This document shows, one piece after another, positions 5,617-55,289 of a DNA stretch of 64,000 nucleotides. The translations under genes and the position numbers were made by a program. The stretch is from Candidatus Bathyarchaeia archaeon (lineage in GTDB: Archaea > Thermoproteota > Bathyarchaeia > Bathyarchaeales > Bathycorpusculaceae): positions 80,758 to 144,757 of the forward strand of contig JBNIDQ010000006.1 in NCBI GenBank assembly GCA_050108135.1, written 5' to 3'. Numbering within the stretch: the stretch's first letter is position 1; each line of letters starts with the position of its first letter. The notes below the pieces were generated by a model. The model searched no databases and was not told the DNA's origin. It saw nothing but the letters and a program-made list of their open reading frames with translations.

Positions 5617-5695
5617 GGGCTCGTCGTCTAGTACGGATTATGACACCAGCCTGCGGAGCTGGAGGTCCTGGGTTCAAATCCCAGCGGGCCCGCCA
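5617..5695 (+). tRNA. tRNA-Arg(GCG), CCA encoded, no intron
   Basis: Acceptor stem GGGCTCG/CGGGCCC, anticodon arm CCAGC-CTGCGGA-GCTGG, T-arm CTGGG-TTCAAAT-CCCAG, discriminator G then CCA. Confidence 0.95.
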
Positions 5696-6451: not shown

Positions 6452-6475
6452 TTAGTCAAGGAAACTTGACGAAAA
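6452..6475 (+). promoter_or_regulatory. GTCAA-N6-TTGAC operator, copy 1, upstream of BRE/TATA
   Basis: TTAGTCAAGGAAACTTGACGAAAA followed by GACTTAAAAAG (TATA-like), about 40 bp upstream of the ATG at 6516. Confidence 0.75.
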
Positions 6476-6515
6476 GACTTAAAAAGTCTAGAAAATCTCC
6501 TCTTTTTGATAAAGT

Positions 6516-7388
6516 ATGAAGCAACGGAAACTGGCATTAGCTGCCATTTTAACGTTTGCAGTTTCAATGTTGGTTTTACTACAGGTTGTTGGTTTTGTCA
6601 ATTTAGCTGCTCAGACGAATTCAGCCGTAACTATCAGGCCTGACGGGAGCATAGAGGGAACAAGCCAAATCCAACGGCAAGAGGATACCTACACTTTGAT
6701 GGGTAACCTCTCATGCAGCATTTATGTTCAGAGAAGCGGTATTGTGATTGACGGAGCAGGCTACGCAATTAATGGAGGCGGTGAAGGAACCGGAATAGAC
6801 CTTAACAACTATCATGGAGTAGATTCTTCACGCGCTCAAATAACTAATGTGACGGTGAAGAACCTAAAGATCACAAATTTTGGTCATGCAGTAGAGTTCA
6901 TACCCTCGGTTAACAACACTTTCATCGGTAACTATGTGAAAGACTGCTACTGTGGCTTTTACATATGGCACTCTGCCAACAATACGCTAATACACAATAC
7001 AATCGAAAATTGCGTATCTGGAATCAGTATCAGCTTCGGAGGCAACGGCAACATCATCACGGAAAACAACATCTTAAACTCCAGCGTTTTTGTTATGAGG
7101 CAATGTCCAGATAACAAAGTTGACCGGAACTACTGGAGCAATTACACAACAAGGTATCCAAACGCCGAGGAAATAGAGGACACAGGCATATGGGATACGC
7201 CCTACGAAGGACATGAAGCCTTTACTGATAATCATCCTCTGGTTGAGATAATCAATATTGAAACGCCCTTACCACCAACAAATACGGGTAACCAAACCCT
7301 CGAAATCCAGTCCACATTATTCCTCGTGATAGCAGTGTCAGTATTGGCGGTTGTACTTTACTTTAGGAGAAAAACGCAAAAGGGATAG
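6516..7388 (+). CDS. NosD/CASH-type right-handed beta-helix surface protein
   Basis: Signal peptide, TIRPDGSIEG start, IVIDGAGYAI, Asn-rich coil repeats, NYWSNY...GIWDTPY motif, C-terminal TM plus basic tail. Confidence 0.85.
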   Translation: MKQRKLALAAILTFAVSMLVLLQVVGFVNLAAQTNSAVTIRPDGSIEGTSQIQRQEDTYTLMGNLSCSIYVQRSGIVIDGAGYAINGGGEGTGIDLNNYHGVDSSRAQITNVTVKNLKITNFGHAVEFIPSVNNTFIGNYVKDCYCGFYIWHSANNTLIHNTIENCVSGISISFGGNGNIITENNILNSSVFVMRQCPDNKVDRNYWSNYTTRYPNAEEIEDTGIWDTPYEGHEAFTDNHPLVEIINIETPLPPTNTGNQTLEIQSTLFLVIAVSVLAVVLYFRRKTQKG

Positions 7389-8632: not shown

Positions 8633-9400
8633 TTGTCCAGCCATCTGATACTAATATCGTTTAGAATAGCTCAAAAAAGGGAAAAAGGATCAAAACTCAA
8701 GTACCGACATGTCCAAGAAGACCTAGAAAACAACCGCATACCAATTCACGTCCACGTTGAAGCAGAAATCACCAAGGGCAAATACCACGACTATGACACG
8801 TTCCTAGCCACAGAAGCCGTCCAATTCCTAAAGCTGTATCTTGAGCAACGCAAGAAGGGCACAAGACGAATTCCGTCCGAAATCTTAACCGAAGAATCAC
8901 CGCTATTCAGAGACGGAACCACAAGCACACCCAGAAGCATTGGCTCAAAGCAAATCCGCAAGCTAGTTCATGACCTCTACATTCAAGCGGGGCTTATCAA
9001 ACAGAAAAGAGGACGCATGTACGACCTAAGAGTTCACAGCTTACGCAAATACTTCAAGACGCAGATGCTAGCGCTCGGCGTTCAAGGAGACTACGTTGAC
9101 TACATGATGGGACATACAGTCGATACCTACCATGATATTCAAAGCCTCGGCATAGACAAACTCCGAAACGTCTACACGGCATCGGGTCTTTGCATAAGAC
9201 AAAAGACGCAGATTAACAAGCTTGAGACAGTTAAGGAAATGATACGGGCGCTAGGAATGAACCCGGACCAGCTACTAACTAAGGATGCATTAGCTGAAGG
9301 TGCAACAACCTACAAAGACCAAGGAGACTTAGAAAACCATCAACTTTCAGTGCTCAACAGTCAACTCAGGCAGTTAATTCACCAAGCGGCAACAGGATAA
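8633..9400 (+). pseudogene. Tyrosine recombinase/integrase, N-terminally truncated
   Basis: Retains ITKGK, HSLRKYF and YMMGH...Y motifs. Homology seems to begin at KLKYRHV, just after where the first catalytic Arg should be. No N-terminal domain is present. Confidence 0.8.
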
Positions 9401-10118: not shown

Positions 10119-12557
10119 CTATTTGGCGGTTTTGCTTCTTCTTTTTTTCTGCACTTTCTCTGACAACGAAACAAACATGTTGCCTATGGCAAGTGCAAAA
10201 GCAGGAAAAGCTGGTAGAATGTACCAGTACAGTTTAGTTTGCGCAAAAGTGAACAGTCCAAGCACGGTACTTATCCAGATGACAAGTAACGTGTCAGGTT
10301 TTGACCGTTTAACTGCCGCGTATAGGCTTAAACTGATGGCAAAGGGCAAGGCTGCTATCCAGACAGGATTTTCGCTAGTGAACAGGTATGTTAGGTAGTA
10401 CAGGACTCCTCCGCTGTGACCTTCGATTGGGTATGTTGCACGCATGAAACCGCTGTACCCGAAGTACCACATGCCGAAAGATGAGCCAAACTGTTGCAAC
10501 ATGTAGATTATCCATGGCAGAAAAACCAGTAGCCCAACACCCAAAAACAGCAAGAACCTTTTAGAAAACAGGAACCTAACACTGCGTTTAGTAACTACCA
10601 AATAAACTATCATAATCAACGGCAACAGTAACGCTTGAATCTGCTTAGTCATAAGGGCTAAACCAAAAAATGCCCCACCAATCACTGCATACCAATTTGA
10701 CCTTTTTCCAGTTTCGCTTGCAAGAATAAAGTATATTCCGGCAGTTATGAAGAAGAGTAACATTACGTCTGTCATGGCGTGTCTGGCAAAAATGAAAAAA
10801 GTAGCGAAAGTTCCCAGAACCATGGCGGCTGCAAAACCTGTTTTTTGGCTGTAAAGTTTTTTGCCCAAATAGTAAACCATAACCATTGAGAGCGCGGCAA
10901 AGATTGGGCTGATTAGTCTTGTGGAGAAGTTGCTGAACCCAAACAGTTGATACGACAATGACATTAGCCACATGTAAAGGGGTGGTTTGGCAATCCAGAA
11001 ATTGACTTCTCCAAAACACCAAGGAACCAAATAATCTCCAGACTTGCTCATGTGAAAACCCCACTGAGAATAAGTCTGCTCGTCAGCAACCCACAAAGCC
11101 CCGTTGCCTAAATACACAAAAAATGCGACAGAAAAAGCCAGAATCATCAAAATGTAGACCAAGTCTGTGTGAGCTTTAAGCCAAGACTGCTTGCCAACTA
11201 TGTTTGGCTGATTGCTTAGGCTGCTTTGACGGTTTCTGTAAGTAACAAGCAGCAATGTTGCGATTAATCCAGCAATCACCACAAACGCAATAACGTCAAA
11301 AACGACATTATTCAAATTCAGACTAGTGTCTTGCAGAAAAGTTGTACCTGAGTTTGTTAGTGCAAAAGCGTAAATTATGAAGTCATCTGAGCCAACGTAA
11401 AGCGTATTGTTCACGATTGTTGGTGAAGATTCCACAATCCCGCCTGTTTCATACCGCCATTTCTGCTCTCCTGTGAAGGCGTCAAAACAGTAGAGGCTTT
11501 GGTCCTCCGAACCCACGTACACGTTTGAGTTGGCAACAGCGGGAGACGAAACAATCCAGTAGCCTGTTTGGGCTTGCCAAACCAAGTCGCCGTTAACTGG
11601 GTCAAGGCAGTACAAGAAGCCATTGTATGAGCCAACATAAAGGTAACCGTAGGCTATGGCTGGTGAGGATTCTACTTGGCATTGGTCACCTGTTTGGTAC
11701 TGCCAAATTATGGCGCCGTCTGTTGCGTTTAGGCAGACAACGTATCCGTCAACGGAACCAACATACACTTTATCGTTAAATATGCATGGCGAAGACCGTA
11801 TGCTGCCAGTGTGTTTATTCCAAAGTTCCTCGCCATTTGAAGCATTAACTGCGCGGACAACAAAGTCATCACAAGCAAAATACACAACATCCCCCGAAAT
11901 GGCTGGTGAAGAATAAACTTGCTTATCGGTCGGGGCAACCCAAACAATTTCGCCGCTTGTTGCGTTTAGGCAGTAAAGTCCGCTGCTTCCTGAACCAATA
12001 TAGATTCTGCCGTCAACAAGCGTTGGCGAAGACCTTACGGAGCCACCAATTAGTGTTCTCCAAATAATGTCTCCGTCCGTAATGTTTAGGGCGTAAACGT
12101 AGCCGTCATCAACACCAACATAAACCCGTTCCTTGTCAATTGCTGGGGAAGACCAAACCTCCCAACCTAAACCGGTCCTCCAAACAGGCATGCCAGTTGA
12201 AATGTTAAGACAATACACGTTTTGGTCTCTGGAACCCACAAAAAGCAGCCCATCCTCTACTGCGGGTGAAGAGTAAACCGCACGGTATGTTGGATACCTC
12301 CAGAGCAATGTTGCAGAGTCAGTGGATTCTCTGTCGCTTGCAAAAGCTGTGTGGGTTTGGTCATGGCGGAACATTACCCACTCATTATAGTCGCTGTTGA
12401 CTGGTTTGGCTGTTGCTAAACAAGTGGTTTGAACAAGTAAAACAAGCAGGATTAACGTGATTGTTAGTACTGCTTGTTTGGGTTTGTTCATTGTTATCAT
12501 TACAGGCAAGCAAATGTATAGAAAGAATATAAAACCTACCAAAAACCCGCTCATCAA
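10119..12557 (-). CDS. PQQ/BamB-like beta-propeller fused to an ArnT/PMT_2-type (GT-C) glycosyltransferase
   Basis: N-half has many SSP-x-V...VYVGS.D..vYclnA.tG..vW repeats. C-half is polytopic with DE (WVADE), KPPLY, DxxLLFF, TK and WYILP motifs. Confidence 0.85.
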   Translation of the reverse strand: MMSGFLVGFIFFLYICLPVMITMNKPKQAVLTITLILLVLLVQTTCLATAKPVNSDYNEWVMFRHDQTHTAFASDRESTDSATLLWRYPTYRAVYSSPAVEDGLLFVGSRDQNVYCLNISTGMPVWRTGLGWEVWSSPAIDKERVYVGVDDGYVYALNITDGDIIWRTLIGGSVRSSPTLVDGRIYIGSGSSGLYCLNATSGEIVWVAPTDKQVYSSPAISGDVVYFACDDFVVRAVNASNGEELWNKHTGSIRSSPCIFNDKVYVGSVDGYVVCLNATDGAIIWQYQTGDQCQVESSPAIAYGYLYVGSYNGFLYCLDPVNGDLVWQAQTGYWIVSSPAVANSNVYVGSEDQSLYCFDAFTGEQKWRYETGGIVESSPTIVNNTLYVGSDDFIIYAFALTNSGTTFLQDTSLNLNNVVFDVIAFVVIAGLIATLLLVTYRNRQSSLSNQPNIVGKQSWLKAHTDLVYILMILAFSVAFFVYLGNGALWVADEQTYSQWGFHMSKSGDYLVPWCFGEVNFWIAKPPLYMWLMSLSYQLFGFSNFSTRLISPIFAALSMVMVYYLGKKLYSQKTGFAAAMVLGTFATFFIFARHAMTDVMLLFFITAGIYFILASETGKRSNWYAVIGGAFFGLALMTKQIQALLLPLIMIVYLVVTKRSVRFLFSKRFLLFLGVGLLVFLPWIIYMLQQFGSSFGMWYFGYSGFMRATYPIEGHSGGVLYYLTYLFTSENPVWIAALPFAISLSLYAAVKRSKPDTLLVIWISTVLGLFTFAQTKLYWYILPAFPAFALAIGNMFVSLSEKVQKKRRSKTAK

Positions 12558-12615
12558 CCTATTTGGAGCCTAATAGCAGCCTATTAGAGGTTGTATGCAA
12601 AAACCTATAGGGGGT
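12553..12615 (+). repeat. Dispersed intergenic repeat, copy 1
   Basis: ATCAACCTATTTGGAGCCTAATAG...GTATGCAAAAACCTATAGGGGGT. Confidence 0.8.
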
Positions 12616-12629
12616 CTATCAATTCCATA

Positions 12630-12770
12630 AGCCGGTGTGGCTGGTGAACCTCAAAAGTAAACACAACATCAGTCATAACAATACCCTACAATGTAGAATA
12701 CTGGGTTGCTGGTTTATTTGCAATTTGCCATCAACCAATCGGTTAAACGGCTAAATTTTTTTGAAAATAA
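12630..12770 (-). repeat. Ectopic copy of the GH57 gene 5' end and upstream region (original at 49926-50068)
   Basis: 12630-12734 matches 49926-50030 with 4 mismatches in 105 bp by manual alignment. It encodes MTDVVFTFEVHQPHRL, then runs into the repeat and stops (ORF 12605-12676). Confidence 0.9.
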
Positions 12771-12863
12771 CATGAAGAATGGGATGGTGCAATTTGTGCG
12801 GATGATGTTCGTTATCGGTCTGTTTGCACCGTTCGCTAAGCGGTCTGATGAAAAAATCAAAAT

Positions 12864-13814
12864 TTAAGGTTTACGATATCTTCGGCAGTAAAATACAGTT
12901 GATGTTATTCCGATTGCTGTTACCATTGAGACGCCTGCGATTACCGGTGTGAATGAAGACGGAGTTTCCGGTTCTTGTGTGGACTTTACAATCTCGTCTT
13001 TCTCAACGTCATAAGGATACGTGAGCGGGTAGTGATCTATGTTATTCTGGTCAATAACGTATGCTGTGTCGCCAATTCCCGAATTGCCGAGTTCAGAAGC
13101 GTTAGGATACTTTACCGTATAGTTACTCCAGTAATTACCAACAGAACCATTATCCCAAAAATTAGCAGTATTGACTATAAAAGATGCTGATACATTGTTA
13201 AGCAAAATATTATTCGCGGTAAATATATTTGAACCTGACCGAGAAGCGATATACATTTCAGAAATACTGCAGTTTGAGATATGGTTTCCACCACCCCACA
13301 AGGATATTTTTTTAATGCTACTTTCTATTACAGTATTATACTCACCGTTAACTCGAAGAGCGTTTTGGGTTGTTATGTTAGTGATAAAACAGTTTGAACT
13401 GGCCAAAAAAACGCTTGTTGGATTTTCACCAATTATTTCGAGATTTTTAACGGTCACATTAGTCACTTGTAATATCTCTAAGCCAGAATTATCAAAAGCA
13501 CCTAGTGCATTTATTGTATGTCCCCCACCGTCGAATAAGATGTTACTTCGGTCAATTCTGACACTATAATTTTCTATGTCGGCGGTTAATGTGTATATGT
13601 TTTCAGTTCGGTTTATCAGGCCAAGGGCTGGAGATTCTTCATGCGAAGGAGAAACTTGGTAAATTGTTATGCTACCATCGCTTTTTATTGTTAATTCTGG
13701 CAAATATTGACGATCAAGAGGACCTGCTGTTGCCAAATTAACAAACAAGAATCCACAAGTCAGCGAAAACAATAAAACTGAAATTAGAACAATAACTAAA
13801 ACTTTTTTTGCCAA
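12864..13814 (-). CDS. NosD/CASH-type beta-helix surface protein
   Basis: Signal peptide, TIKSDGSI, ILFDGGGHT, GNYWSNY...GIGDTAY...DHYPL motifs, C-terminal TM. Confidence 0.85.
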   Translation of the reverse strand: MAKKVLVIVLISVLLFSLTCGFLFVNLATAGPLDRQYLPELTIKSDGSITIYQVSPSHEESPALGLINRTENIYTLTADIENYSVRIDRSNILFDGGGHTINALGAFDNSGLEILQVTNVTVKNLEIIGENPTSVFLASSNCFITNITTQNALRVNGEYNTVIESSIKKISLWGGGNHISNCSISEMYIASRSGSNIFTANNILLNNVSASFIVNTANFWDNGSVGNYWSNYTVKYPNASELGNSGIGDTAYVIDQNNIDHYPLTYPYDVEKDEIVKSTQEPETPSSFTPVIAGVSMVTAIGITSTVFYCRRYRKP

Positions 13815-13866
13815 GTTTCATTGCCTCTGCATTAATTGGTTTTGGGGTAAAGAGTTTATAAAAGGG

Positions 13867-13890
13867 TTTTCGTCAAAGTTTCTTGACTAA
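13867..13890 (-). promoter_or_regulatory. GTCAA-N6-TTGAC operator, copy 2
   Basis: Minus strand reads TTAGTCAAGAAACTTTGACGAAAA then CCCTTTTATAAAC (TATA). Confidence 0.75.
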
Positions 13891-14000
13891 AGCTTTTTGG
13901 CTACAGATACGCTTTTAAATCTAATAAGAGGCTGTGAGAAACTGCAATTTTAATAAAATATTTTGTTTGATGTTGATTTTGTTTGGTTGTTTTGGTGTGA

Positions 14001-14109
14001 AAATTGTTTTTGTGGTTTGTTTGGGTGTTGGGTTTTTTGTGTGGAGTGTGAACTGGTTGGCGTAGGCACTGCTTTTTCGTTGCTTTACTTTTCATATCAA
14101 CCTATTAGG
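14001..14109. repeat. Conserved non-coding flank shared with 51807-51962
   Basis: 14001-14067 vs 51807-51873 are 65/67 identical; 14079-14109 vs 51932-51962 are 31/31 identical. Confidence 0.9.
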
Positions 14110-14151
14110 CTCCAAATAGGATATCATTGCAGAAACCTATAGGGGGTAGGT
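14096..14151 (+). repeat. Dispersed intergenic repeat, copy 2
   Basis: ATCAACCTATTAGGCTCCAAATAGG...TGCAGAAACCTATAGGGGGTAGGT. Confidence 0.85.
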
Positions 14152-14232
14152 CGTATTGGCGTTTTTTCAAGCCAAAAACATGTTGAAAAATGTTTTAAGA
14201 AAAAAATGAAGGGCTAAACTGCCCAAAATGGT

Positions 14233-14568
14233 TTACTTTAGTTTGTTAAAGAAGCAACTGTACTCGCCAGTGTGGCAAGCGTTGTCTTTCTGCTCAACCA
14301 CGTACAAGAGTGTGTCGTAGTCGCAGTCAGTTGAAACTGAAACAATCTTTTGCGTGTGACCGCTGGTTTCGCCTTTTACCCAGATTTCGTTTCGGCTGCG
14401 GCTCCAGTAGGTGGCTTTGCCGGTTTTGAGGGTTAGGTCAAGTGCTTCTTTGTTGGCGTATGCCAGCATCAAAACAGTTTTAGTGGTTACGTCTTGAACT
14501 ACGACTGGGATTAAGCCGTTGCCTTTAGCGAAGTCAAGTTTAGAGAGTAATTCTTCAGGTGTTGTCAT
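14233..14568 (-). CDS. hisI: Phosphoribosyl-AMP cyclohydrolase (monofunctional)
   Basis: YWSRSR...[15 protein letters not shown] and ACHTG..SCF motifs. Confidence 0.95.
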
Positions 14569-28308: not shown

Positions 28309-28328
28309 AAACATCTAAAAATAACCCG

Positions 28329-28380
28329 CCTATTTGGCGCCTATTAGAAATAGTATGCAGAAACCTATAGGGGGGTAGGT
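28329..28380 (+). repeat. Dispersed intergenic repeat, copy 3
   Basis: CCTATTTGGCGCCTATTAGAAATAGTATGCAGAAACCTATAGGGGGGTAGGT. Confidence 0.85.
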
Positions 28381-28532
28381 AAAAACTAGGCTGTAGCTTC
28401 TACGGGATTGTTAAAAACTGCGCGCATTTGTTCGCCGCGCCACGGAAACTTGCTTGCTGTTATGTTGCCTGTTTTTGTAGTGTCGTTGTGGGTTGCTTGT
28501 CTGCTTTGTAGGAGAAAATTAATATGGTTTAG

Positions 28533-33887: not shown

Positions 33888-33930
33888 AAACCTAAGTATC
33901 CCTTAAGGGGGTAGGTGCTATTGGCTAAAA
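33888..33930 (+). repeat. Partial or interrupted copy of the dispersed repeat
   Basis: AAACCTA[AGTATCCCTTA]AGGGGGTAGGTGCTATTGGCTAAAA; the right half matches 52031-52059. Confidence 0.6.
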
Positions 33931-34010
33931 ATCACGCCAAAAACGGGCTGAACAACATTTAGGCTAAAAAAGAAAGAGAAGGGGAAACTGGTTAATTTGT
34001 GAACGTTACC

Positions 34011-48424: not shown

Positions 48425-49972
48425 TTAGAATTGCCTGGTAGCTTCCTGAGCTTTGTCTGAAAGAGTTTTGTAACGGCTCTTTGCAGCAGCAACAAGTGCG
48501 CGTCTTAGGGTTTCTTTCTTTTTCTTTGAAGCAGCGGTTTCACGGATTTTTGCGGCTAACTCTTCATCTTTAAGGGAATATTTAATCCAGTTCTCAAAAT
48601 CGCCAGTGCCCACGTGATACTCAAGGGCTTCCGCATCCACTGTTTGAACGGCTTTAATGAATCCGTACAGGCTCCAAGCCATAACCCCTGTGTAGTATTC
48701 TTTGCCTGTGCCCGTGTAGAAAAGGAACGGTTCATTAGCAGTTAAAATCGCACCTCGCAGGCGTGATTCAAAATCGTTAAGCAGTGTTTGAGCAACCGCG
48801 AAAGCATCCATCGGCGACTCGTAAGGGCTAAAGTATGAATGAACTTCGCCTGGTCCTCCGCCTGCAGTGAACATGTAATATAGGTGGTCGCTTGTTTGGA
48901 AGTCTCGCCAAAGCCGCAGCCATTCAGGGTCTTCTGACTCTTTCGCTAAAGGTTCCAGTCGCCGCAGTGAAGTGTAATATGCCCACTGCATAACGTTGCC
49001 AAGCCAACCTGTCGAGTCACGTGCAACATCCGCCCAAGACACAGTAAATTCGGTTTCGGGAACATCAATCTCTCCTGCTGAAGCATGCCGGTCAACCGCC
49101 TCGCTTGGCGTAACCATTTTCAGGTTGTCGTATTCAAGCAGTTTTTCAGGCATGTGCCGCAAGAAATTGTGGATTCCCGTTTCTGGCCAATGGTGCTCCC
49201 CGAAAGTTTCGTAGTCGGGGAAGATGTTGATGACTTCGCCTTTTGTGCCTGCAAGCCAACTGGCGTATTTTTCGGAGGTTAAGGGCCAATCAGGCCACCA
49301 GCGTGCGCTGAAACGGAAACCAATATCGTCTGTTAATTTGTAGTTGCGAAGCAGCGTTCGGATTTTTTTGCAGCCTTTTGGCGTGTACAGGAAGTTGGGA
49401 GATTTTCCGCCGAGAATTTTTTCTACGCCTTCAGTGTAAATGCCCTTGTAACCCATTTCTTCAACGGTTTTGGCGATGGTGTTGTTGTAGAGCAATTCAG
49501 TGTTTTCAAAAACGCTTGGAGTATAGCCGAGTAGGTCTTGGATTAGTTGGCGGTGCATTTTTACTTGTTCAATGAATTCGGTTTTGTCAGGGTAAAGGCT
49601 GGCGATTGAGTGGTAATAGGTTTGGTCAAGAAACTCTACTTTGCCTGTTTTTGCAAGCTGCTTAAAGGTTTCAAGTAGGTCCTTGTCGAACATTTCGCAT
49701 TGTTCCAAAAACACGCCAGAGAGGCTGAAGGCAACTTTGACTGGTTTGCGTTCGTGACTGTGTCGGTCGATGAGGTCAAGCAGGATTTGGTTTGAAGGGA
49801 AATAGCATTTGCGGGCGGCACGCTTGAAAATTTCCCGGTCACCCTCGTTATCGAAGTAGTAATCGAAAAGTTCTTTTTTGGTTAAGCGTTTGAAGATTTT
49901 GCCTTCCCAAAACAAGCTTCGTCGTAGCCGATGCGGCTGGTGAACCTCAAAAGTAAACACGACATCAGTCAT
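48425..49972 (-). CDS. GH57 alpha-amylase-like glycoside hydrolase with a C-terminal DUF5752-like domain
   Basis: FEVHQP, TYYHS, ENTEL (nucleophile), DYETFGEH, SWAD and QTSDHLYYM motifs; C-terminal YHVGTGDFENWI. Confidence 0.92.
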   Translation of the reverse strand: MTDVVFTFEVHQPHRLRRSLFWEGKIFKRLTKKELFDYYFDNEGDREIFKRAARKCYFPSNQILLDLIDRHSHERKPVKVAFSLSGVFLEQCEMFDKDLLETFKQLAKTGKVEFLDQTYYHSIASLYPDKTEFIEQVKMHRQLIQDLLGYTPSVFENTELLYNNTIAKTVEEMGYKGIYTEGVEKILGGKSPNFLYTPKGCKKIRTLLRNYKLTDDIGFRFSARWWPDWPLTSEKYASWLAGTKGEVINIFPDYETFGEHHWPETGIHNFLRHMPEKLLEYDNLKMVTPSEAVDRHASAGEIDVPETEFTVSWADVARDSTGWLGNVMQWAYYTSLRRLEPLAKESEDPEWLRLWRDFQTSDHLYYMFTAGGGPGEVHSYFSPYESPMDAFAVAQTLLNDFESRLRGAILTANEPFLFYTGTGKEYYTGVMAWSLYGFIKAVQTVDAEALEYHVGTGDFENWIKYSLKDEELAAKIRETAASKKKKETLRRALVAAAKSRYKTLSDKAQEATRQF

Positions 49973-50085
49973 AACAATACCCTACAATGTAGAATACTGG
50001 GTTGCTGGTTTATTTGTAATTTGCCATCAAACAAACAAAGTTAACAGACTAAAATTCTTTGAAAATAAAAAAAGAAGAGGGCTGG

Positions 50086-50414
50086 TTATATCCAGTAGTG
50101 CGCAACAATGTTTGTGTTTGAATTTATCAGTCTACTATCACCGTTCCCTAAACCATCACTAAAATAGGAAAGCACCCAATAATCAAAAGGTGTCTGCACC
50201 GACACAGTATGATACCCAGCAGTCACACTAACAGGCCAAGACGCAGAATACGGAACACCATCAATATAAACCGTAGGACCCAACCACTGGTAAGAGTAAT
50301 CATCATACGCTGAAACAGTCAACGTATAAGAAGGCGGCGGCTGAGTCTGAATAGTTACACTTTTTGGACTTGATGAAAAAGGATTAATGAAAAGAGTTTA
50401 GACTTAAATTTCAT
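50086..50414 (-). pseudogene. Probable remnant of a secreted protein (frameshift or deletion)
   Basis: ATG at 50414 gives MKFKSKLFSLILF out of frame with a downstream PPPSYTLTVSAY...HYWI beta domain. The frames meet at a T5 run (50376-50380). Confidence 0.45.
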
Positions 50415-50522: not shown

Positions 50523-51578
50523 TCAATTTTTACAAAACTTTTTCAAAATAAAAAAAACGCTAAATAAACCAATTATAACACATAGCGATACAGCAATTAT
50601 GAGAAAACTGTTAAATTGATCAAAAAAGCCCGCATTATTGTTTTCAGGTATCAAGTACTTTGAGGGTTCAAAAGCAACATCATTTTTTTGTGAAAGAGGT
50701 GCTTGGTCAATCCCGCTGGCAGCATCTGCCGAATTATTGACAATATCTTTCCAAAGGTTGCTCCAAAAATTATTGATCACTGTGTTGTTTTCACTCCAAG
50801 CAAGCTCTGGGTCTCCGGAATACATAAGCCCTACTTGATTATCAATGAAGTTGTTGTTGAAAAATCGATTATTACAATTGTGACTTAAAAGGTCAACCGC
50901 AGCACCGCTACTGTTTTGGAAGTTGTTAAACAATACTTGAGAATTATTTAAGCTATAAAATCGGCCGCCGTTACAATAATTATTTGAAAAATTATTGTAG
51001 GCAAGCAAAAGATTGACAGAATCCCTCATAGTTAAGGCTGTGTCAAAATTATCGTTAAGTTGGTTTCCGATGATAAGGCAATCGATATTTCTGTAGGCCG
51101 TAATTGCTTGGAGGCCGCCAGCTAAATTGCAACTCATCACTTGAATGTTTGAACAGTTAACAAAACTAATTGCAACAAAAAAATGGCAAGCCGTGACATT
51201 TGTAATTATTATGTTGCTGGCGTTTGTTATTTGTATCAATGGCGCCGCTGTGAATTCAGGTTTCCAGTAACTAACACTTACGCTGGATGGCAAGGACATA
51301 GTGAACCCGCGTCCATCAAACACTATATCGTTTTTCTGAATTTCAAGGCTATAATTGAGGATATTTCCAGTCAAAAAAAATGTGTTGCCTGACCGCTGAA
51401 TTGGTAATGTTGACGGGCAAATTTCACCGTTACTTTTGATATAACCTTTTTCTGTTGGAACTATCTGAGGAATTATTGCGTTTGCATTTACCACAACAAT
51501 TGATTGAAAACAAATTGTACTAACCAAAAAAACACAGGATAAAAATAGCACAACTTTGTAAGTTTTCAATTTAATCAT
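50523..51578 (-). CDS. NosD/CASH-type beta-helix surface protein
   Basis: Signal peptide, YIKSNGEI..IQRSGN, IVFDGRGFT, Asn ladders, NNFWS and DQAPL motifs, C-terminal TM. Confidence 0.85.
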   Translation of the reverse strand: MIKLKTYKVVLFLSCVFLVSTICFQSIVVVNANAIIPQIVPTEKGYIKSNGEICPSTLPIQRSGNTFFLTGNILNYSLEIQKNDIVFDGRGFTMSLPSSVSVSYWKPEFTAAPLIQITNASNIIITNVTACHFFVAISFVNCSNIQVMSCNLAGGLQAITAYRNIDCLIIGNQLNDNFDTALTMRDSVNLLLAYNNFSNNYCNGGRFYSLNNSQVLFNNFQNSSGAAVDLLSHNCNNRFFNNNFIDNQVGLMYSGDPELAWSENNTVINNFWSNLWKDIVNNSADAASGIDQAPLSQKNDVAFEPSKYLIPENNNAGFFDQFNSFLIIAVSLCVIIGLFSVFFILKKFCKN

Positions 51579-51619
51579 AGCTAACCCTGTTGATTCTGGG
51601 ATATTTTATTTATTAAATT

Positions 51620-51643
51620 TTTTCGTCAAATTTTCTTGACTAA
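51620..51643 (-). promoter_or_regulatory. GTCAA-N6-TTGAC operator, copy 3
   Basis: Minus strand reads TTAGTCAAGAAAATTTGACGAAAA then AATTTAATAAAT (TATA-like). Confidence 0.75.
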
Positions 51644-51948
51644 CAGTTTTTCGACACGAAATAAAAAAGCAGCATTAACAAACATTAATTGTCCATATTC
51701 AAACCAGTAAAGGGCGTATACACATAACTATTGAGAAAATGCCAATTTTTGCCCAACAGTTCACAACAGCAAAAAACTACTTTAATAAGGGTATTTTTGA
51801 AGACTAAAATTGTTTTTATGGTTTGTTTGGGTGTTTGGTTTTTTGTGTGGAGTGTGAACTGGTTGGCGTAGGCTTTGTTTGAAGGGGTCATGCTAGTGCC
51901 CAACTGCATTGCGCTTTTCATTTGCTGTTCTGTTGCTTTACTTTTCAT

Positions 51949-52004
51949 ATCAACCTATTAGGATGCTATTAGCAGTTGTATGCAGAAACCTATAGGGGGT
52001 AGGT
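51949..52004 (+). repeat. Dispersed intergenic repeat, copy 4
   Basis: ATCAACCTATTAGGATGCTATTAGCAGTTGTATGCAGAAACCTATAGGGGGTAGGT. Confidence 0.85.
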
Positions 52005-52030
52005 TAAAATGACGCTTTTTCGAAAAACAC

Positions 52031-52059
52031 TAAGGGGGGTAGGTGCTAATGGTTGAAAA
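52031..52059 (+). repeat. Partial copy of the dispersed repeat
   Basis: TAAGGGGGGTAGGTGCTAATGGTTGAAAA, matching 33904-33930. Confidence 0.6.
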
Positions 52060-52194
52060 CAAGCGCATTAGCATGTTGAAAACCGGTAGTTTGACGCGTT
52101 TGGCGGGTTTTGTTGGTGGAATGTTTTTAGAAAAAGTTATTAGCGTAGCGTAACATTAGGCTTTCAACACCATTAATCTTTGGAAGGTTAAGTT

Positions 52195-55159: not shown

Positions 55160-55206
55160 ACCTCTGCTTCCTTTTCAGCTTTTTTGGCCTGAAAAAGGGT
55201 TTTTCT

Positions 55207-55259
55207 ACCTGCCCCCTATAGGTTTCTGTATACTATTTCTAATAGGCTCCAAAAGGTTG
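55207..55259 (-). repeat. Dispersed intergenic repeat, copy 5 (inverted)
   Basis: Reverse complement reads CAACCTTTTGGAGCCTATTAGAAATAGTATACAGAAACCTATAGGGGGCAGGT. Confidence 0.85.
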
Positions 55260-55289
55260 GTAAAGAATCGTTTACCCGGTCATTTCAGC

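Follow-up and report, generated by a model that had tools for sequence, protein, structure and literature searches.

Block A and block B in the window

The window analysed here is a 64,000-nt stretch of the genome of a Bathyarchaeon (Bathy-6 / Bathycorpusculum relatives; 2.68 Mb, 88% coding), represented by a MAG with 100% completeness and 2.8% contamination. Between hisI and a PQQ beta-propeller / PMT_2 glycosyltransferase gene (PQQ-PMT), it contains block A, a unit bounded by copies of a repeat made of a U module, a 19-nt core CCCCCTATAGGTTTCTGCA, a D module and sometimes a 'leader' extension. Block A and its flanks comprise:

14233–14568, minus: hisI (PRA-CH), last gene of the his operon and other flank of the insertion site
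14079–14190, minus: upstream-junction repeat, full (U, core and D), core 14146–14128
14000–14095, minus: 'leader' module (ATG 14095, 64-codon ORF) plus a 75-nt segment (14074–14000)
13850–13898, minus: promoter region with palindrome GTCAAGAAACTTTGAC, then GAAAACCC, then a TTTATAAA box (palindrome and box at about 13887–13850)
12864–13814, minus: NosD-A gene, 316 aa
12631–12770, minus: copy of the GH57 upstream region and first 46 coding nt (ATG 12676), 90–95% identical to 49926–50068
12548–12646, minus: downstream-junction repeat (core and D, no U), core 12614–12596, GGTTTTTGCA variant
10119–12557, minus: PQQ-PMT gene, directly after the single repeat in relatives

The GH57 fragment ends at ...CGGCT and is followed by TATGGAATTGATAGA. 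Block B, at the intact GH57 gene, shows the same order:

52086–49926, minus: block B as a whole
51932–52086, minus: U-only repeat copy (52086–52035), then core, D and leader (52023–51932; ATG 51948)
51806–51880, minus: 75-nt segment, in a reading frame unlike that of block A
51605–51651, minus: palindrome GTCAAGAAAATTTGAC and a TATA-like box
50523–51578, minus: NosD-B gene, 351 aa (Pfam NosD, 4e-12)
50086–50322, minus: 78-aa remnant, homologue (54%) of the C-terminus of a 1079-aa PKD-domain protein
48425–50068, minus: intact GH57 gene (515 aa, 48425–49972) plus upstream region, source of the duplicated fragment

Every feature that the original prediction had listed for the two blocks was found, with near-identical non-coding segments around divergent genes, including the extra gene remnant in block B; the 1079-aa PKD-domain protein follows a NosD paralog on another contig of the genome, C4. 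The predicted flank identity of 96–100% holds for the best sub-stretches only, as the aligned segments are 109 nt at 95%, 75 nt at 93% (the 75-nt segment, also present in C4) and 32 nt at 88%, and the repeat plus leader is 81% identical over 99 nt. The 'MKSKAT ORF', listed as a leader or reading frame, turned out to be a further repeat module, typically 7–9 codons long, and its 64-codon version in block A is not conserved.

The enclosed proteins are as divergent as predicted (23% identity over the full length, E 4e-8) and belong to a family of about 20 genes in the genome for secreted, membrane-anchored, NosD-like beta-helix proteins. NosD-B scores above the curated Pfam cut-off (46.5 bits, PF05048/PF13229) and is predicted to be membrane-anchored. 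NosD-A had no Pfam match above cut-off and appears, from its sequence, to belong distantly to the parallel beta-helix (NosD-like) family, linked to it through a homolog, P0042 (46% identical, 26.2 bits), and by a weak PDB match to a NosD protein (7o0y, E 0.015); it has an N-terminal signal/TM segment and a C-terminal TM segment with a basic tail, and is likewise predicted to be membrane-anchored. The palindromic promoter element is common to about a dozen NosD-like genes and a few other signal-peptide genes; preceding about 13 signal-peptide genes, it is not the cassette-specific flanking operator it had been taken for. A further copy lies beside tRNA-Arg:

6452–7388, plus: third palindrome, TATA and NosD-like gene (290 aa, gene 6516–7388; Pfam match 40 bits, above cut-off)

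The third operator-NosD unit claimed there thus exists as operator (about 6455) and gene, but has neither leader nor core.

Block A is a derived insertion within a repeat

We compared the hisI / PQQ-PMT site with that of four relatives, G001–G004, of which G001, a fragmented MAG, is the closest. All four carry a single repeat where the source genome has block A: in G001 (contig C50), window position 12615 is joined to 14128 through one repeat, and in G002–G004 the gaps at the site are 33–150 nt. Two direct cores, 14146–14128 and 12614–12596, bracket block A as expected, and both junctions fall inside the core. At the upstream junction, the resident U and core, which match the resident repeat of G001, are followed past ...GGTTTCTGCA by a foreign D of the GH57-locus type; at the downstream junction, foreign sequence and core are followed by the resident D, identical to that of G001. 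With one repeat in four relatives and both junctions inside the core, block A is a lineage-specific 1532-bp insertion at the repeat, which bears out the proposal that such units can be inserted at repeat sites.

The repeat is a dispersed, generic intergenic family

The repeat is mosaic, intergenic and lineage-specific. Its exact 11-mer CCTATAGGGGG occurred 55 times in the genome and never in a reversed control, and a profile search found 162 copies, among them 77 full, 48 U-only and 31 D-only, dispersed over 22 contigs at about one per 16 kb. Only nine copies overlap an ORF by more than 30 bp, despite the high coding density. Both orientations occur genome-wide with no strong bias and no array, and the core is the most conserved part and the longest identical stretch. 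Further copies in the window are:

28318–28399, minus: repeat copy upstream of GAPDH
33906–33954, minus: U-only copy
55174–55272, plus: full copy

Many copies sit between convergent genes, which argues that the repeat is not promoter-like. RNAalifold on 30 full copies gave only a 4-bp stem (−1.8 kcal/mol, no covariation) and thus no conserved hairpin, Rfam matched tRNAs only, and symmetry at the repeat ends is limited to 5 nt (TCAAC/GTTGA). An IS5-like element inserts into the repeat and shares no ends with it. Elsewhere, repeat-bounded segments around unrelated genes coincide with synteny breaks relative to G001–G004. The repeat had also been proposed as a marker of surface-gene borders; genes with an N-terminal hydrophobic segment were not enriched beside it (32% vs 27%, p=0.26), and we consider it instead a generic family.

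Sister units share junctions and form mosaics

Units with conserved 5′ and 3′ flanks around unrelated or divergent centres comprise A, B, C4, a decayed fourth unit on contig C2 and one in another Bathyarchaeon, the last with the same layout, bounded by repeats, in a Ku/LigD context. Three instances of the GH57-fragment/core junction exist in the genome, in block A, in C4 and on contig C3 (GH57 fragment, GATAGA and core 100% identical at C4:28336-28449 and 94% at C3:9437-9574), with a different D module after the C4 and C3 junctions. In addition, an independent 399-kb contig, L113, follows C4 through the core and C3 immediately beyond it. The donor T variant (GGTTTTTGC) is retained at all three right junctions, placing every crossover within the last 4–5 nt of the core, which hints at a fixed exchange point from few events (2–3), perhaps dependent on one another. 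A mixture of strains or chimeric assembly, rather than events within one genome, could underlie both the C3–C4 difference and contig L106.

Block A and its C4 paralog show 100%-identity stretches on either side of about 690 nt at roughly 74%: positions 14067–13868 are 94–100% identical, the variable part (13867–13177) is 58–90% identical except for one gap-affected 50-column window at 30%, and 13126–12927 is 100% identical. This mosaic pattern points to recombination rather than selection alone and supports the predicted exchange of alleles through conserved flanks, although the flanks are not cassette-specific.

The slot upstream of GH57, predicted to be hypervariable, does differ between genomes: it is occupied by NosD-B in the source genome, stands empty in G001 and contains something else in more distant species. 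The G001 locus lacks window positions 51923–50034, and with them a beta-helix gene upstream, but keeps an A-type leader, and this deletion did not use the cores. Among 80 related species, however, the repeat at GH57 was seen in the closest relative only, and a small gene of the NosD-A/B type immediately upstream in none, so the site is not a conserved hypervariable slot; three of the 80 carry a 635–654-aa beta-helix protein there. Same-species contigs with the exact GH57 protein that reach upstream all carry NosD-B.

Comparison with known systems

REP/BIME elements are interspersed mosaic repeats of bacteria; archaea have MITE-like intergenic repeats. The present family resembles both in its length of about 50–110 nt, high copy number, strictly intergenic position, modular mosaic structure, lineage-specific expansion, location at synteny breakpoints and in being a target for the insertion of an IS element. 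It appears to differ in lacking clear inverted repeats at its termini and duplicated target sites, and it differs in that its core forms the junction of a gene-carrying insertion. Features of REP/RAYT systems were absent from the genome: PF01797 (Y1, IS200/IS605-like transposase) had no match, and the repeat no conserved hairpin.

Integrons, including those of archaea (Ghaly et al. 2022, PMC9668308), comprise IntI, attI and attC cassette arrays. The present units are reminiscent of them in having a repeated recombination site at their borders, in occurring in varied contexts and in being inserted exactly at that site, but no IntI/attI platform is apparent and there is no cassette array, the sites are dispersed genome-wide, the repeat has no attC-like fold (in the 30 full copies) and the units bring their own palindrome and TATA promoter. 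Together with the absence of a reverse transcriptase (PF00078), and so of a diversity-generating retroelement, from the 100%-complete genome, this agrees with the original prediction that neither an RT-based nor a classical integron mechanism is at work.

In surface variation based on gene conversion, of the pilE/pilS, vlsE and msp2 type, several genomic copies of a mosaic gene agree at the 5′ and 3′ ends and diverge in the central, extracellular part, as here; by contrast, A, B and C4 each have their own palindrome and TATA promoter rather than a single expression site with silent cassettes, the copies number only 3–4, and programmed switching was not in evidence. Replacement-type flexible genomic islands are reportedly surface-protein loci exchanged through conserved flanks (Rodriguez-Valera, Lopez-Perez and colleagues). 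They share with the present units the surface proteins, conserved flanks and divergent centres, with NosD-B versus an empty slot at GH57, whereas the alleles here coexist as paralogs in one genome and move between loci. Matus-Garcia et al. are said to have described putative mobile promoters in 2012 (Nucleic Acids Res); near-identical upstream regions before non-orthologous genes of one genome are common to both cases, but the upstream region shared here is part of a duplicated unit and of a generic repeat that is not promoter-like.

Origin of block A

We think it probable that block A entered by crossover in the core, combined with gene conversion among paralogous units, with general homologous recombination as the agent. 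An ancestral unit of repeat, leader, promoter, NosD gene, large PKD protein and GH57 would have been copied, truncated and moved, leaving block B at the GH57 locus proper, block A, the 5-kb C4 copy, of which C3 would carry a variant junction, and the decayed C2 copy. The right end of block A, in which GH57 codon 16 is fused to the repeat, would predate the insertion and probably arose by unequal crossover between 'CGGCTA' of GH57 and 'CCCCTA' in a repeat with two cores. Once this lineage and its closest relative had diverged, the 1532 bp between the two direct cores would have entered the resident hisI / PQQ-PMT repeat by a crossover inside the core, presumably as a looped-out circle or an ends-in fragment. 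Unit copies may keep swapping segments by homologous recombination or gene conversion, which would account for the 100%-identical promoter, 3′-end and junction segments around the divergent sequence coding for the extracellular domain. General homologous recombination, acting on the part of the dispersed repeat that is conserved over the greatest length, seems the most economical agent; 19 nt is short for homologous recombination. That G001 shows no other copies carries little weight, since this MAG is fragmented.

A dedicated site-specific system, in which the core is att-like and a recombinase (e.g. a tyrosine recombinase) moves promoter-bearing units as circles among about 100–110 cores, seems unlikely to us. 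The junctions of block A, C3 and C4, like the point at which L113 switches, fall within the core, the most conserved part of the repeat; the donor T is always on the same side, with an exchange point compatible with a fixed TGCA; repeat-bounded units occur in different contexts across genomes; and the genome has ten tyrosine-recombinase hits (PF00589). Yet none of these adjoins block A, B or C4, the nearest PF00589 match, 3 kb from block A (8633–9400, 255 aa), being weak and below cut-off at 25 bits. No dedicated cassette machinery was identified and no recombinase was linked to the units or the repeat; homologous recombination would cross over in the longest identical stretch anyway; the repeats lie in both orientations and form no array; the GH57-locus deletion in G001 bypassed the cores; the A vs C4 breakpoints lie inside the gene, far from them; and the 2–3 events are possibly dependent. 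Such a system, if real, would be an undescribed, integron-like archaeal 'scattered integron', diversifying the envelope of the cell and rearranging the chromosome.

We regard it as improbable that block A stood at the hisI site ancestrally and disappeared from the relatives through deletion between its two flanking repeats. Direct repeats are a classical deletion substrate, and the single repeat of G001 is the exact expected product; however, all four relatives lack block A, at nucleotide identities from 97% to about 71–74% in PQQ-PMT and 83–89% on the hisI side, so at least two independent precise losses would be needed. Block A itself, moreover, derives from the GH57 locus as a truncated, secondary copy; its D module and leader agree with those at the G001 GH57 locus, and its right junction is common to copies elsewhere. 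A second strain's GH57-locus allele mis-joined through repeats, in assembly or binning, has very little probability in our view, even with 2.8% contamination, short-read contigs that end at repeats, the resemblance of C3 to an alternative path of C4, and L106, which joins A to C4 through 250 nt of identical sequence and is itself a possible chimera. An independent 323.8-kb contig reproduces the hisI / block A / PQQ-PMT arrangement at 100% identity, and in another sample a 10-kb contig agrees with this arrangement over its full reach, which takes in the NosD gene and runs into the GH57 fragment, arguing against the artefact that had been raised as a caveat; the 19-nt shared core is also shorter than usual assembly k-mers, and the novel end junction of the GH57 fragment is not obtainable from any intact GH57 allele. 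Least credible of all is purely diversifying selection on a gene diverged in place, with flanks kept for function and no exchange. The variable part encodes an extracellular domain and amino-acid identity (73%) is below nucleotide identity (79%), but over the whole coding sequence dS is 0.555 and dN/dS 0.26, and the divergence lies in 13867–13177, with zero differences in the adjacent 200 coding and 100 non-coding nt; protein-level selection cannot erase synonymous and intergenic divergence.

The proposed cassette system therefore survives in part: the derived insertion at a repeat, the recurring units and the mosaic stand, while the flanks are generic, the slot is not conserved as a hypervariable one and dedicated machinery was not identified. 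In our view a surface-gene family is being shuffled by way of the repeats rather than by a dedicated cassette machine, the outcome of which would be variation in the copy number, position and sequence of surface proteins.

Two units of common layout

Bathyarchaeia are abundant archaea of sediment and soil, mostly uncultured, and the dynamics of their genomes are poorly known. The genome studied here (G000) comprises 2.68 Mb in 24 contigs at 42% GC, and the window corresponds to C6:80758-144757. Relatives of its GH57 protein lie almost all in Bathyarchaeia MAGs, the nearest being that of 'Thermoproteota archaeon ADS1' (G001, GH57 locus L001; 98% amino-acid and about 95-97% nucleotide identity), followed by those of Bathy-6 MAGs and Bathycorpusculum. 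A sequence check of block A, an insertion between hisI and a PQQ-PMT gene, and of block B, at the intact GH57 locus, bore out the common order that the original prediction had assigned to them:

Parts shared by blocks A and B, in order
1, minus strand: repeat
2, minus strand: ATG, then AAAAGTAAAGCAAC ('MKSKAT' leader)
3, minus strand: shared 75-nt segment
4, minus strand: palindrome GTCAAGAAAnnTTGAC, with an A/T-rich TATA box immediately after
5, minus strand: gene whose product has an N-terminal signal/TM segment and a C-terminal TM anchor
6, minus strand: GH57 upstream region and GH57 start

A repeat search recovered segments common to both blocks of 109 nt at 95%, 75 nt at 93%, 32 nt at 88% and 99 nt at 81% identity. 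The proteins NosD-A and NosD-B share 23% identity; NosD-B is a clear member of the Pfam NosD/beta-helix family and NosD-A a distant member only. The predicted extra remnant in block B (50322-50086) proved to belong to a family of 1079-aa PKD-domain proteins, of which it represents the C-terminal domain (54% identity to the member encoded on contig C4), and the third operator-NosD unit, adjoining tRNA-Arg, is also real.

Block A is inserted at a repeat core

The repeat belongs to a mosaic family composed of a U module, a 19-nt core and a D module, sometimes followed by the leader. In G001, the sequence at window 12615 is joined to that at 14128 via a single repeat within one contig, and in three further related genomes (G002-G004) the PQQ-PMT gene also adjoins hisI, with gaps of 33-150 nt. 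Alignment showed that the upstream repeat of block A is identical to the G001 resident repeat across U and core (...CGACCTACCCCCTATAGGTTTCTGCA) and then passes into a different D module and leader, while the downstream repeat has a foreign start (a GH57 fragment, then TATGGAATTGATAGA), the shared core and, after ...TGCAT, the resident D module and PQQ-PMT gene. With the two cores spaced 1532 nt apart, these junctions are what a single reciprocal crossover would leave if the resident core recombined with that of a circular or ends-in donor. The G001 GH57-locus sequence is closer to the incoming D module and leader than block B is, and the sequence 3' of NosD-A is homologous to what follows the remnant or big gene, both at the GH57 locus and on C4, indicating that block A is a truncated copy of a GH57-locus-type unit.

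An assembly artefact, which the original prediction had named as grounds for abandoning the idea, is contradicted by independent contigs. A 323.8-kb JGI contig matches the whole block A arrangement at 100% identity, and a 10-kb contig from another sample is 100% identical over the his operon and NosD-A up to its own end, which falls in the GH57 fragment.

The longest ORF of the adjoining gene, a PQQ-propeller/PMT_2 glycosyltransferase (10119-12557, minus strand), begins in the repeat D module (TTG 12557 / ATG 12554); a start at the later ATG, before MNKPKQAVLTITLILLV..., is more likely and gives a proper signal peptide. At 3 kb from block A, past tRNA-Arg (5617-5695), a NosD-like gene and a Kelch-repeat gene, a 255-aa ORF (8633-9400, plus strand) has a weak tyrosine-recombinase match (25 bits, below the cut-off), and this region looks like the remnant of an integrated element.

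The right junction is shared and older than block A

The right junction of block A (GH57 -32..+46, TATGGAATTGATAGA, then the GGTTTTTGC variant of the core) recurs at C4:28336-28449 with 100% identity over 114 nt and at C3:9437-9574 with 94%, and past the core each copy runs into a different D module. On C4 it closes a complete unit of repeat, leader, promoter, NosD-A' (73% amino-acid identity to NosD-A), 1079-aa protein, GH57 fragment and core; at the C4 site, G001 departs from this sequence before the repeat is reached, and the comparison gives no clean breakpoint. L113, an independent 399-kb contig, carries C4 sequence and then C3 sequence directly after the core, so two different contexts follow the C4 unit downstream, whether across the population or within the genome. 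Contig C3 (9.9 kb) holds a 99%-identical copy of the final part of the C4 unit (C4:28336-29059) and continues with DNA ligase and flavodoxin genes; the MAG may be a mixture of two structural variants or hold two copies. Separately, C6, at its end (375338-end), shares at least 700 nt at 100% identity with the start of C7; these are redundant assembly ends beside a U-only repeat.

The GH57 fragment carries ancestral states common to G002 and G003, not those of the present GH57 of G000 and G001, and the junction is therefore older than the block A insertion. The repeat at the G001 GH57 locus is a double-core variant (CCTACCCCTA-TCGGAAAGGTAGA-CCCCCTATAGG), the first CCCCTA of which is replaced by GH57 CGGCT in the junction. 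An unequal crossover at this CGGCT/CCCCTA microhomology probably formed the GH57-fragment/core junction, and would have produced a tandem unit between two direct cores, able to loop out.

Mosaic paralogs

Scored in 50-column windows, the identity of block A to the C4 unit changes abruptly along the unit:

Identity of block A and the C4 unit
14067-13868, minus strand: 75-nt segment to palindrome, 94-100%
13867-13177, minus strand: 5' UTR and ~210 codons of extracellular domain, 58-90%, with one gap-affected window at 30%
13126-12927, minus strand: last ~65 codons including the TM anchor, 100%
GH57 fragment, to its junction with the core: 100% again

For the coding sequence as a whole, dS is 0.555 and dN/dS 0.26. 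The divergence is thus old and under purifying selection, with flanks recently shared, a combination that points to recombination or gene conversion and led us to reject in-place hypermutation. Leaders have been shuffled too, as C4 combines the 47-nt-longer leader of block B with the promoter region of block A. Contig L106 (JGI 3300050336, Ga0528475_004019) tracks the window at 99.87% identity across the his operon and NosD-A as far as 12870, and C4 thereafter at 99.93%, including the 1079-aa protein; the switch lies inside a 250-nt stretch where A and C4 are 100% identical, and the contig either comes from a true recombinant strain or is an assembly chimera. On C2 there is a fourth unit, now decayed, in which leader, NosD 3' segment and big-protein remnant survive with other content between them. 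In a different Bathyarchaeon, a unit of repeat, leader, promoter, NosD (68%) and remnant, closed by another repeat, lies between Ku/LigD and a PAS kinase.

The repeat family and the flanking modules

The 11-mer CCTATAGGGGG occurs 55 times in the genome versus 0 in the control. A profile built from its copies found 162 repeats (77 U+core+D, 48 U-only, 31 D-only), nearly all intergenic although the genome is 88% coding; across 30 full copies the invariant part is ACCTACCCCC(C)TATAGGTTTCTGCAT. Allowing at most 2 mismatches, the 19-nt core has 77 copies in G000, 32 in one congener and no more than 3 in the other 23 genomes sampled from the genus, and it is absent from 16 genomes that represent 15 further genera of the order: a recent, lineage-specific expansion. 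A role as 5' UTR or promoter module was rejected because downstream genes are co-oriented in 57 cases versus opposite in 49; start distances are also broad. A structured RNA or attC-like hairpin was likewise rejected, as the 30 full copies have no conserved secondary structure.

The original prediction called for enrichment of the repeat at surface-gene borders. A crude hydrophobicity test showed none: 32% versus 27% lie beside genes with N-terminal hydrophobic segments (p=0.26). Since the repeat is family-wide, the MKSKAT module follows about 21 D modules and the palindrome with TATA box precedes ~13 genes, no flank is private to A and B. MKSKAT is a further repeat module; we rejected a small protein family, as its ~21 copies are usually open for 7-9 codons. 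Its ATG is replaced by ATA in the related contig L093, and the reading frame of the shared 75-nt segment differs between A and B.

Upstream of ~13 genes (window 6455, 13872 and 51628, with 10 further sites in the genome) stands the palindrome GTCAAGRWWNYTTGAC, with GAAAA next and then a TATA box 45-57 nt ahead of the start codon; all of these genes encode signal-peptide-like N-termini and many are NosD-like paralogs. Palindrome and TATA box together resemble a promoter element for a surface-protein regulon, with the palindrome a candidate transcription-factor site.

Rearrangement and IS insertion at the repeats

Further repeat-bounded segments fall at synteny breaks relative to G001-G004, of which G004 is a complete genome, making the family a general rearrangement hotspot:

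C2:39524-40597: one secreted 244-aa protein
C15:222004-225105: repeat-bounded segment

Another rearrangement with a repeat at the break is seen in L097 (G001:C9), where a gene orthologous to the 123-aa gene downstream of the C4 unit (C4:28182) is joined via one repeat to genes whose place in G000 is on C19 (C19:151400-152784).

An IS5-like DDE element (C19:150157-151390; terminal inverted repeats GARGGGTGTGCAYAATT) has several near-identical copies, mostly at contig ends (C19 start, C17 end, C20 start, C18 end, C3:733-1459); the C19 copy has an internal 221-nt tandem duplication and an N. Its insertion point is precisely the GGATCC in the middle of the D-module palindrome CTAATAGGATCCTAATAG, which marks the repeat as a preferred IS target, like the targets of REP-targeting IS elements of bacteria.

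The slot upstream of GH57

In G001, the repeat at the GH57 locus is followed by an A-type leader and the beginning of the 75-nt segment, and the GH57 upstream region comes immediately after; window 51923-50034 is missing, and the deletion ends are not in cores. The slot differs between the two closest genomes, but across species (80 loci) it is not a conserved hypervariable locus. In more distant species, the position is taken by a 635-654-aa beta-helix protein, by GAPDH-PGK or by unrelated genes, and a repeat at GH57 was absent from all 80 loci examined except L001. Wherever a same-species contig encodes the exact GH57 protein and extends upstream of it, the gene there is NosD-B, and no metagenome contig context fetched had NosD-A directly upstream of an intact GH57.

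Mechanism and implications

Insertion at the core, junctions with differing D modules and mosaic paralogs are all present at this locus. In line with the original prediction, a route based on reverse transcriptase or a classical integron finds no support: genome searches found no reverse transcriptase and no Y1 transposase, and, set against the integrons of PMC9668308, the repeats form neither an attC-like hairpin nor cassette arrays. The pattern probably arose by homologous recombination between dispersed repeat copies at their longest conserved stretch, together with gene conversion among unit copies. Site-specific recombination at the core, a less likely alternative, is kept alive by the donor T of GGTTTTTGC, which is retained in all right junctions and places the crossovers in the last few core bases, but these are only 2-3 events, possibly dependent, and no recombinase, the 10 tyrosine recombinases of the genome included, is linked to them. 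The original observation is thus confirmed and its interpretation holds in part: the locus is one of a surface-gene family that recombines through repeats, and it does not amount to a demonstrated new cassette system.

For users of MAGs, the repeats and identical unit segments break or mis-join assemblies, and the 19-nt core is a sequence worth testing as a recombination site. The locus provides a base-resolved case in which lineage-specific intergenic repeats serve as the junction for insertion of a complete, promoter-bearing surface-protein gene, with mosaic exchange among surface-gene paralogs and repeats that also mark synteny breaks and act as an IS target. This suggests a route of envelope variation in these archaea without DGRs or integrons, a variation probably relevant to virus and partner recognition.
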